854 bases of DNA, taken from assembly GCF_003334815.1 (NCBI RefSeq), contig NZ_QOWO01000116.1; one strand, 5' to 3'. This DNA is from Escherichia coli (GTDB taxonomy: Bacteria; Pseudomonadota; Gammaproteobacteria; Enterobacterales; Enterobacteriaceae). A model generated the notes under the pieces. The model searched no databases, was not told the DNA's origin, and worked only from the letters and a program-made list of their open reading frames with translations. A program made the position numbers and the translations under genes. This document shows, piece after piece, positions 1-854 of this stretch (its first letter is position 1; every line of letters starts with the position of its first letter).

Positions 1-62
1 CGCGAGGCATCGTCTTAACGAGGCACCGAGGCGTCGCATTCTTCAGATGGTTCAACCCTTAA

Positions 63-854
63 GTTAGCGCTTATGGGCTGGTCACCCACTGGCACTATGA
101 CGAAGCAGACCGCCTCACGCACCGCACCGTGAATGGCGAAACCGCAGAGCGGTGGCAGTATGACGAACGCGGCTGGCTGACAGACATCAGCCATATCAGC
201 GAAGGGCACCGGGTGACGGTGCACTATGGTTATGACAGTAAAGGCCGCCTCGCCAGTGAACACCTGACGGTGCATCATCCGCAGACGAATGAACTGCTCT
301 GGCAGCATGAGACCAGACATGCGTACAACGCACAGGGACTGGCGAACCGCTGTATACCGGACAGCCTGCCCGCCGTGGAATGGCTGACCTACGGCAGCGG
401 TTACCTGGCAGGCATGAAACTCGGCGACACACCGCTGGTGGAGTACACCCGCGACCGCCTGCACCGGGAAACGCTGCGCAGCTTCGGCCGTTATGAACTC
501 ACCACCGCTTATACCCCTGCCGGGCAGTTACAGAGCCAGCACCTGAACAGCCTGCTGTCTGACCGCGATTACACCTGGAACGACAACGGCGAACTCATCC
601 GCATCAGCAGCCCGCGCCAGACCCGGAGTTACAGCTACAGCACCACCGGCAGGCTGACCGGCGTTCACACCACCGCAGCGAATCTGGATATCCGCATCCC
701 GTATACCACAGACCCGGCAGGTAACCGCCTGCCCGACCCGGAGCTGCACCCGGACAGCGCCCTCAGCATGTGGCCGGATAACCGTATCGCCCGTGACGCG
801 CACTATCTTTACCGGTATGACCGTCACGGCAGGCTGACAGAGAAAACCGACCTC
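63..854 (+). CDS. Rhs-family YD-repeat protein, core (shell) region; 5'-truncated fragment, 3' end continues beyond window; possibly a pseudogene or orphan core remnant
   Basis: Seen in sequence: frame 3 is open from codon 63-65 to 852-854 (264 codons, no stop). Translation contains repeated YD-repeat motifs: [10 protein letters not shown] (87-116), [10 protein letters not shown] (153-182), [10 protein letters not shown] (222-251), YNAQGL (324-341), [11 protein letters not shown] (567-599), [10 protein letters not shown] (630-659), [10 protein letters not shown] (702-731), [15 protein letters not shown] (810-854). The motif YxYDxxGRLTEK is characteristic of enterobacterial Rhs core proteins (established knowledge). 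GC content is about 60-68% in the segments I counted by hand, typical of the GC-rich Rhs core. Start coordinate 63 is the first codon after the in-frame TAA at 60-62; recognisable Rhs sequence begins near 75. No in-frame ATG/GTG/TTG lies between 63 and the GTG at 129-131; the first ATG is 414-416, and none has a convincing Shine-Dalgarno. An annotation pipeline might instead call a start at 129 or label the region a pseudogene. A truncated mid-core start is reminiscent of rhsE in E. coli K-12, but I cannot verify the paralog. Confidence 0.88.

Follow-up and report, generated by a model that had tools for sequence, protein, structure and literature searches.

An IS186/IS421 end joined to the 3′ part of an rhsC-type gene in Escherichia coli

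The window analysed in this study, a stretch of 854 nt from E. coli, carries a long Rhs reading frame with no evident beginning. A TAA at 60–62 is the sole stop in this frame, and 63–854 is open, as the sequence-only reading had described. The question was why an open frame of this kind lacks a credible start, and whether it is a remnant, an internally started gene or a store of sequence for recombination. The window is very probably the place where the right end of an IS186/IS421 element, inserted midway along an rhsC-type gene of E. coli or a close relative, meets the rest of that gene. The lack of a start can then be explained with neither recoding nor a sequencing error nor an unusual mode of initiation, and the finding matters mainly for correct annotation.

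The insertion sequence end and its target in rhs

The window was divided into two parts by sequence search against 5,426 complete E. coli genomes: 1–77 matched an insertion sequence (IS) and 75–854 matched rhs (Table 1). The IS/rhs boundary was placed at 75/76. The part at 1–77 matched thousands of multi-copy places in E. coli at 100%, among them the IS186 copy of K-12 that ends near 16,730, and no gene is annotated under these matches. No Rfam family was found in the window (E ≤ 1).

Table 1. Features of the 854-nt window
Feature	Position	Strand	Remark
Right end of IS186/IS421 (IS4 family), non-coding	1–75	+	Same sequence as the final 75 nt of the L001 element (1339 bp)
23-bp terminal inverted repeat of IS186, CAACCCTTAAGTTAGCGCTTATG	53–75	+	Exact reverse complement at the other IS end
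TAA closing the Rhs frame, inside the IS inverted repeat	60–62	+	
Right-hand copy of the 10-bp target-site duplication, GGCTGGTCAC	76–85	+	Same 10 bp at both IS ends in L001, L002, L004–L006 and L010
3′ part of rhsC-type rhs core, YD-repeat shell, running off the window end	75–854	+	Codons 692–951

The complete element was examined in the equivalent locus of strain YF-1 (L001). It is 1339 bp long and has perfect 23-bp inverted repeats, CATAAGCGCTAACTTAAGGGTTG ... CAACCCTTAAGTTAGCGCTTATG. The first of these is the exact reverse complement of the second and forms the other element end in L001, L002 and L004–L010. Both the end sequence of IS186/IS421 and its 23-bp terminal inverted repeat were found in the window. 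The DDE transposase gene of L001 (insL) is annotated as an IS4-like element IS421 family transposase, and its stop codon lies about 97 nt before the position equivalent to the window start.

The TAA at 60–62 is invariant within the IS inverted repeat and is not a mutation of rhs. Where the IS lies in the opposite orientation (L004–L007), the same TAA still precedes the rhs 3′ half, because both 23-bp repeats are perfect. Recoding or a sequencing error at 60–62 was rejected on the ground of this invariance. The sequence-only reading had allowed for a true start further upstream, reached through one of these two routes; the start does lie upstream, beyond the IS, but neither route is involved. 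It had also recognised a truncated remnant but had missed the IS186/IS421 insertion as the cause, and 1–75 was not seen as an IS end.

IS186 inserts almost exclusively at 5′-GGGG(N6/N7)CCCC-3′ (Lee et al. 2016, PMC5009759). K-12 has just 54 such sites, some of which were struck many times, and one or two deviating bases were seen in 7 of the 59 IS186 sites of that study (Lee et al. 2016, PMC5009759). The uninterrupted rhs gene reads gatgaGGGGCTGGTCACCCactgg at the target, where GGCTGGTCAC is present once. In the disrupted loci GGCTGGTCAC stands on both sides of the IS, which identifies a 10-bp target-site duplication; it could reach 12 bp if the C/G at the termini of the element is counted as target. 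A direct duplication of 10 bp flanked the IS in all nine disrupted loci inspected. The target, GGGGCTGGTCACCCa, can be written as GGGG(CTGGTCA)CCCA with an N7 spacer and covers codons 691–696 of rhs. It agrees with the published motif except for one departure in the 3′ tetramer, CCCA for CCCC. In the 4.2-kb rhsC gene, GGGG(N6-7)CCC occurs only once, at the insertion target. Divergent rhs families (about 80–90% identical) keep the IS186 target as GGGGCTTATCACCC or GGGGCTTGTCACCC.

The following course of events very probably accounts for the window. The transposase recognised the GC-rich GGGG(CTGGTCA)CCC at codons 691–696, and the 1.34-kb element inserted there with duplication of 10 bp. A promoter-less and start-less 3′ half (residues 692–1397 in the intact allele) was left after the IS. 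Beyond the IS would remain the start codon, the PAAR/DUF6531 region and the YD shell as far as its first half. The true rhs start would then lie upstream, separated from the fragment by roughly 1.34 kb of IS and a further 2.07 kb or so of rhs. In a simple insertion, the rhs 5′ half would end with …GGGGCTGGTCAC at the other IS end (5′-half sequence …CGCAGCGAGGATGAGGGGCTGGTCAC). Two points stand against a simple insertion: the left junction and the 5′ half lie outside the 854-nt window, and the target is one base off the consensus.

An assembly chimera joining two repeats, IS186 and the rhs core, was also considered. Both window ends (1 and 854) lie in multi-copy DNA of these two kinds, as is typical of short contigs that bridge repeats in short-read assemblies. 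Neither the complete genomes nor the GTDB-representative or metagenome contigs contained this exact pairing of allele and IS: across the 5,426 complete E. coli genomes no full-length match exceeded 97.8% identity, and an exact 50-nt junction pattern gave 0 matches in the two contig sets. No recorded gene product begins at GTG 129 either. However, the join coincides precisely with the IS terminus and with the one IS186 target motif that the gene contains. Long-read complete genomes have the join at the same nucleotide, which a chimera is not expected to reproduce. A chimera is therefore hardly credible, and an insertion remains the preferred reading.

Equivalent loci in complete genomes

The whole 854-nt junction was present in 11 of the 5,426 complete E. 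coli genomes searched, with 96.8–97.8% identity. A twelfth genome carried a 130-nt junction in rhsD, bringing the total for the right junction of the window type to 12/5,426. Strains YF-1 and 2013C-4991 (L002) were among the genomes carrying the whole junction. Both loci have the order ybfA, rhsC 5′ half (pseudogene, 2085 nt), IS421-family transposase, rhsC 3′ half (annotated as a pseudogene of 2121 nt) and ybfB. This structure upheld the proposal that the fragment is a probable non-functional remnant.

A left junction was found about 1.3 kb away in all 11 genomes with a window-type right junction in rhsC-type genes. These genomes are therefore simple insertions. By analogy with them, the 5′ half probably adjoins the IS in the genome of the window too. 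Alternatively, an IS-mediated deletion, an inversion or recombination between IS186 copies might have removed or relocated the 5′ half and left an orphan 3′ fragment. The position of the left junction outside the window would fit such a rearrangement, as would the absence of this allele and IS combination from the complete-genome collection. IS copies often undergo homologous recombination with each other in E. coli (Lee et al. 2016, PMC5009759). Against it, the matching left junction together with the 10-bp duplication occurred in 11/11 complete genomes with the right junction. Loss or relocation of the 5′ half is thus distinctly unlikely, and a simple insertion is favoured.

The left junction in the orientation of the window was counted in 33/5,426 genomes, a count that also takes in more divergent rhs genes. 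The opposite IS orientation at the same site was counted in 17/5,426 complete genomes. The split state therefore occurs in about 50 of the 5,426 complete E. coli genomes (33 + 17), or roughly 1%. The nine loci inspected shared the same nucleotide position and the 10-bp duplication and were distributed over five chromosomal rhs loci: kdp-ybfA-rhsC, occupied in both orientations; yibF (the rhsA site); vgrG-rhs-ydcD; ybbP-rhsD-ybbC; and rpmE-rhs-yiiX. Since the same position is used in five rhs loci and in both orientations, the site is a genuine recurrent hot spot, with at least six independent IS186 insertions. Its coordinates are 71–90 in the window and 6713–6760 and 8053–8090 in L001, with equivalents in L004–L010. 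No mention of an IS186 hot spot in the rhs core was found in the literature searched.

The recurrence also raised the idea that the conserved IS186 target in the rhs core is kept as a recurrent on/off site, a switch at the population level rather than decay. If so, IS186 would repeatedly silence single Rhs toxins, and the 3′ halves would be repaired or reshuffled via recombination with paralogs. Such a switch is highly improbable. As a hot spot, the site may help annotators and may be of use in counting functional type VI secretion system (T6SS) effectors.

The rhs fragment and its missing start

The open frame at 63–854 is real Rhs coding sequence. It stayed open in 2 of 20,000 mononucleotide shuffles, and its translation maps to residues 692–951 of the 1397-aa RhsC. 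Positions 75–854 matched the intact rhsC of strain X14-3 at 100% identity and K-12 rhsC at 99.5%. Zero differences from an intact rhsC allele over 779 nt indicate that the insertion is recent on the point-mutation scale. The frame would still be open because the insertion is too recent for mutations to have accumulated. Recent truncation, one of the options given earlier, agrees with this result.

Differences from other alleles were not evenly spread. They were concentrated in patches at 224–292 and 401–559, varied between strains and included synonymous and non-synonymous changes. The clustered patches look like the mosaic expected from gene conversion among rhs paralogs rather than decay. 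The dN/dS comparison with intact paralogs suggested by the sequence-only reading is uninformative in this case, given zero differences from the intact allele and the patchy mosaics in the others.

The same patches bear on the proposed role of the fragment as a recombination reservoir, in which core homology would allow its C-terminal toxin tip to be swapped into intact rhs paralogs or the gene to be repaired from them. Patches at 224–292 and 401–559 are what gene conversion among paralogs would leave, and the complete E. coli genomes carry a median of 7 matching places each. However, this property is common to any copy of the rhs core and is not specific to the fragment. No sign of selection was seen for the IS-split state, which is rare (about 50/5,426). 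A reservoir role is accordingly unlikely, and the fragment is better read as the 3′ half of an interrupted gene.

The in-frame start codons were counted again. GTG 129 and ATG 414 had been named as the only canonical starts, but eight were found: GTG at 129, 213, 219, 270, 375 and 438, and ATG at 414 and 768. The strings upstream of the two named starts had been given correctly (113–128, cctcacgcaccgcacc; 401–413, ttacctggcaggc). The anti-Shine-Dalgarno (anti-SD) duplex energies of the eight starts lay between +1.9 and −6.1 kcal/mol. Taken over every position of the window, the background averaged −2.4 kcal/mol, with −5.9 kcal/mol as its 5th percentile. The best values belonged to GTG 213 (−4.5 kcal/mol) and GTG 219 (−6.1 kcal/mol), which share GAAGGG at 201–206 upstream. 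This SD-like score is at the edge of the background and is not a distinguishing signal. No convincing Shine-Dalgarno was found at any of the eight in-frame starts by duplex energy, in broad agreement with what had been said of the first two. A consensus scan found no sigma-70-like promoter in the window. No outward promoter of IS186 was found in the literature searched.

Expression of the 3′ half by internal initiation, from read-through of insL or of the rhs promoter, would give a truncated protein of shell plus toxin. Eight in-frame starts instead of two are available for it, and the weak SD-like GAAGGG precedes two of them. In L001, insL points the same way as the fragment, and transcription could enter from insL or from the upstream rhs promoter. 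Yet the SD scores reach only the edge of the background of the window, and promoter-like sites are absent from it. Both IS orientations occur, so co-orientation of insL is not conserved. A product started within 129–768 would be without the N-terminal region and half of the shell. It would lack PAAR/DUF6531, whereas the solved Rhs effectors, taken as analogues, form a closed shell. Internal initiation, the second option of the earlier reading, is most improbable and was not borne out. Under the favoured reading of an IS-split gene, the 3′ half is probably not translated because start and promoter signals are missing, and its product is probably either not made or not functional.

The domain content of both halves was compared by a Pfam scan of the 1397-aa RhsC, made as two separate halves. 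The fragment lacks the N-terminal 691 residues, where DUF6531 and the majority of the strong RHS repeats are located. In the identical allele, the 3′ half gave RHS_repeat hits and the RHS core domain. The window translation was homologous to solved T6SS Rhs shells, namely Tse5 (8cp6), RhsA (7q97) and Tse15 (8uxt), with E = 2.6e-12 to 1.4e-9 among the PDB matches. The YD/RHS repeats that form the shell of a functional Rhs toxin gene were found in the fragment, and a complete open reading frame with a start and a PAAR-like/DUF6531 N-terminus was absent. The end of the core, the toxin and the immunity gene would lie past position 854; in the identical intact allele (L003), PISNIDPLGL occurs at residue 1238, with the toxin tip and then ybfB after it.

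The gene's own start is retained in the rhsC 5′ half, whose reading frame runs on into the IS. Proteins predicted from this half have 708 aa in L001 (4653–6779) and 714 aa in L004 (2655–4799), and they end in short IS-encoded tails, one of which is …EGLVTISANLRVVVLRLI followed by the stop. As predicted from these sequences, such a product would be a toxin-less half-shell protein with the N-terminal DUF6531 region.

Relation to known insertions and rhs genes

A comparable case is the IS186 insertion in the lon promoter of E. coli B (SaiSree et al. 2001, as cited in PMC3045373 and PMC6925257). The element is the same as in the IS186 hot-spot insertions of this kind, with a 100% identical end and the 23-bp inverted repeat. 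The GC-rich palindromic type of target, repeated independent insertion at a single nucleotide, the use of both orientations and the inactivation of a gene are also shared. In contrast to the lon promoter, the rhs target lies inside coding sequence, and its CCCA is one base off the consensus.

Genes of the rhsA–E family consist of a YD-repeat shell, the motif PxxxxDPxGL, a C-terminal toxin and an immunity gene. The fragment resembles the E. coli RhsC/Rhs T6SS effector genes in its 100% identity to codons 692–951, its RHS repeats and its homology to the shell. It differs from them as a fragment without a start, PAAR/DUF6531 and the first half of the shell, and the piece is a RefSeq pseudogene in the equivalent loci.

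Orphan rhs C-terminal tips are features of long standing. They consist of a partial core, an alternative toxin and an immunity gene downstream of a full-length rhs gene, and their starting point is inside core homology. The fragment is like these tips as a start-less piece of core able to recombine with a full-length gene. However, its exact starting point is the IS186 terminus, next to a target duplication, and the main gene consists of this fragment and the 5′ half. It was therefore not classed as an orphan tip. Separate orphan tips were found further downstream in the equivalent loci (10552–12072 in L001).

The fragment is an ordinary pseudogene half produced by IS186/IS421 and is known in kind; the recurrent IS186 hot spot in the rhs core is the only mildly new point. 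Two minor observations were made on the sequences. On the minus strand, a GTG-started open reading frame of 149 aa (15–464) crosses the IS/rhs boundary in GC-rich DNA that joins two unrelated sequences, and it is almost certainly spurious. The IS copies at 6738–8075 in L002 and 4740–6077 in L009 are 1338 bp rather than 1339 bp long and carry transposase genes annotated as frameshifted; both copies are probably no longer able to transpose on their own.
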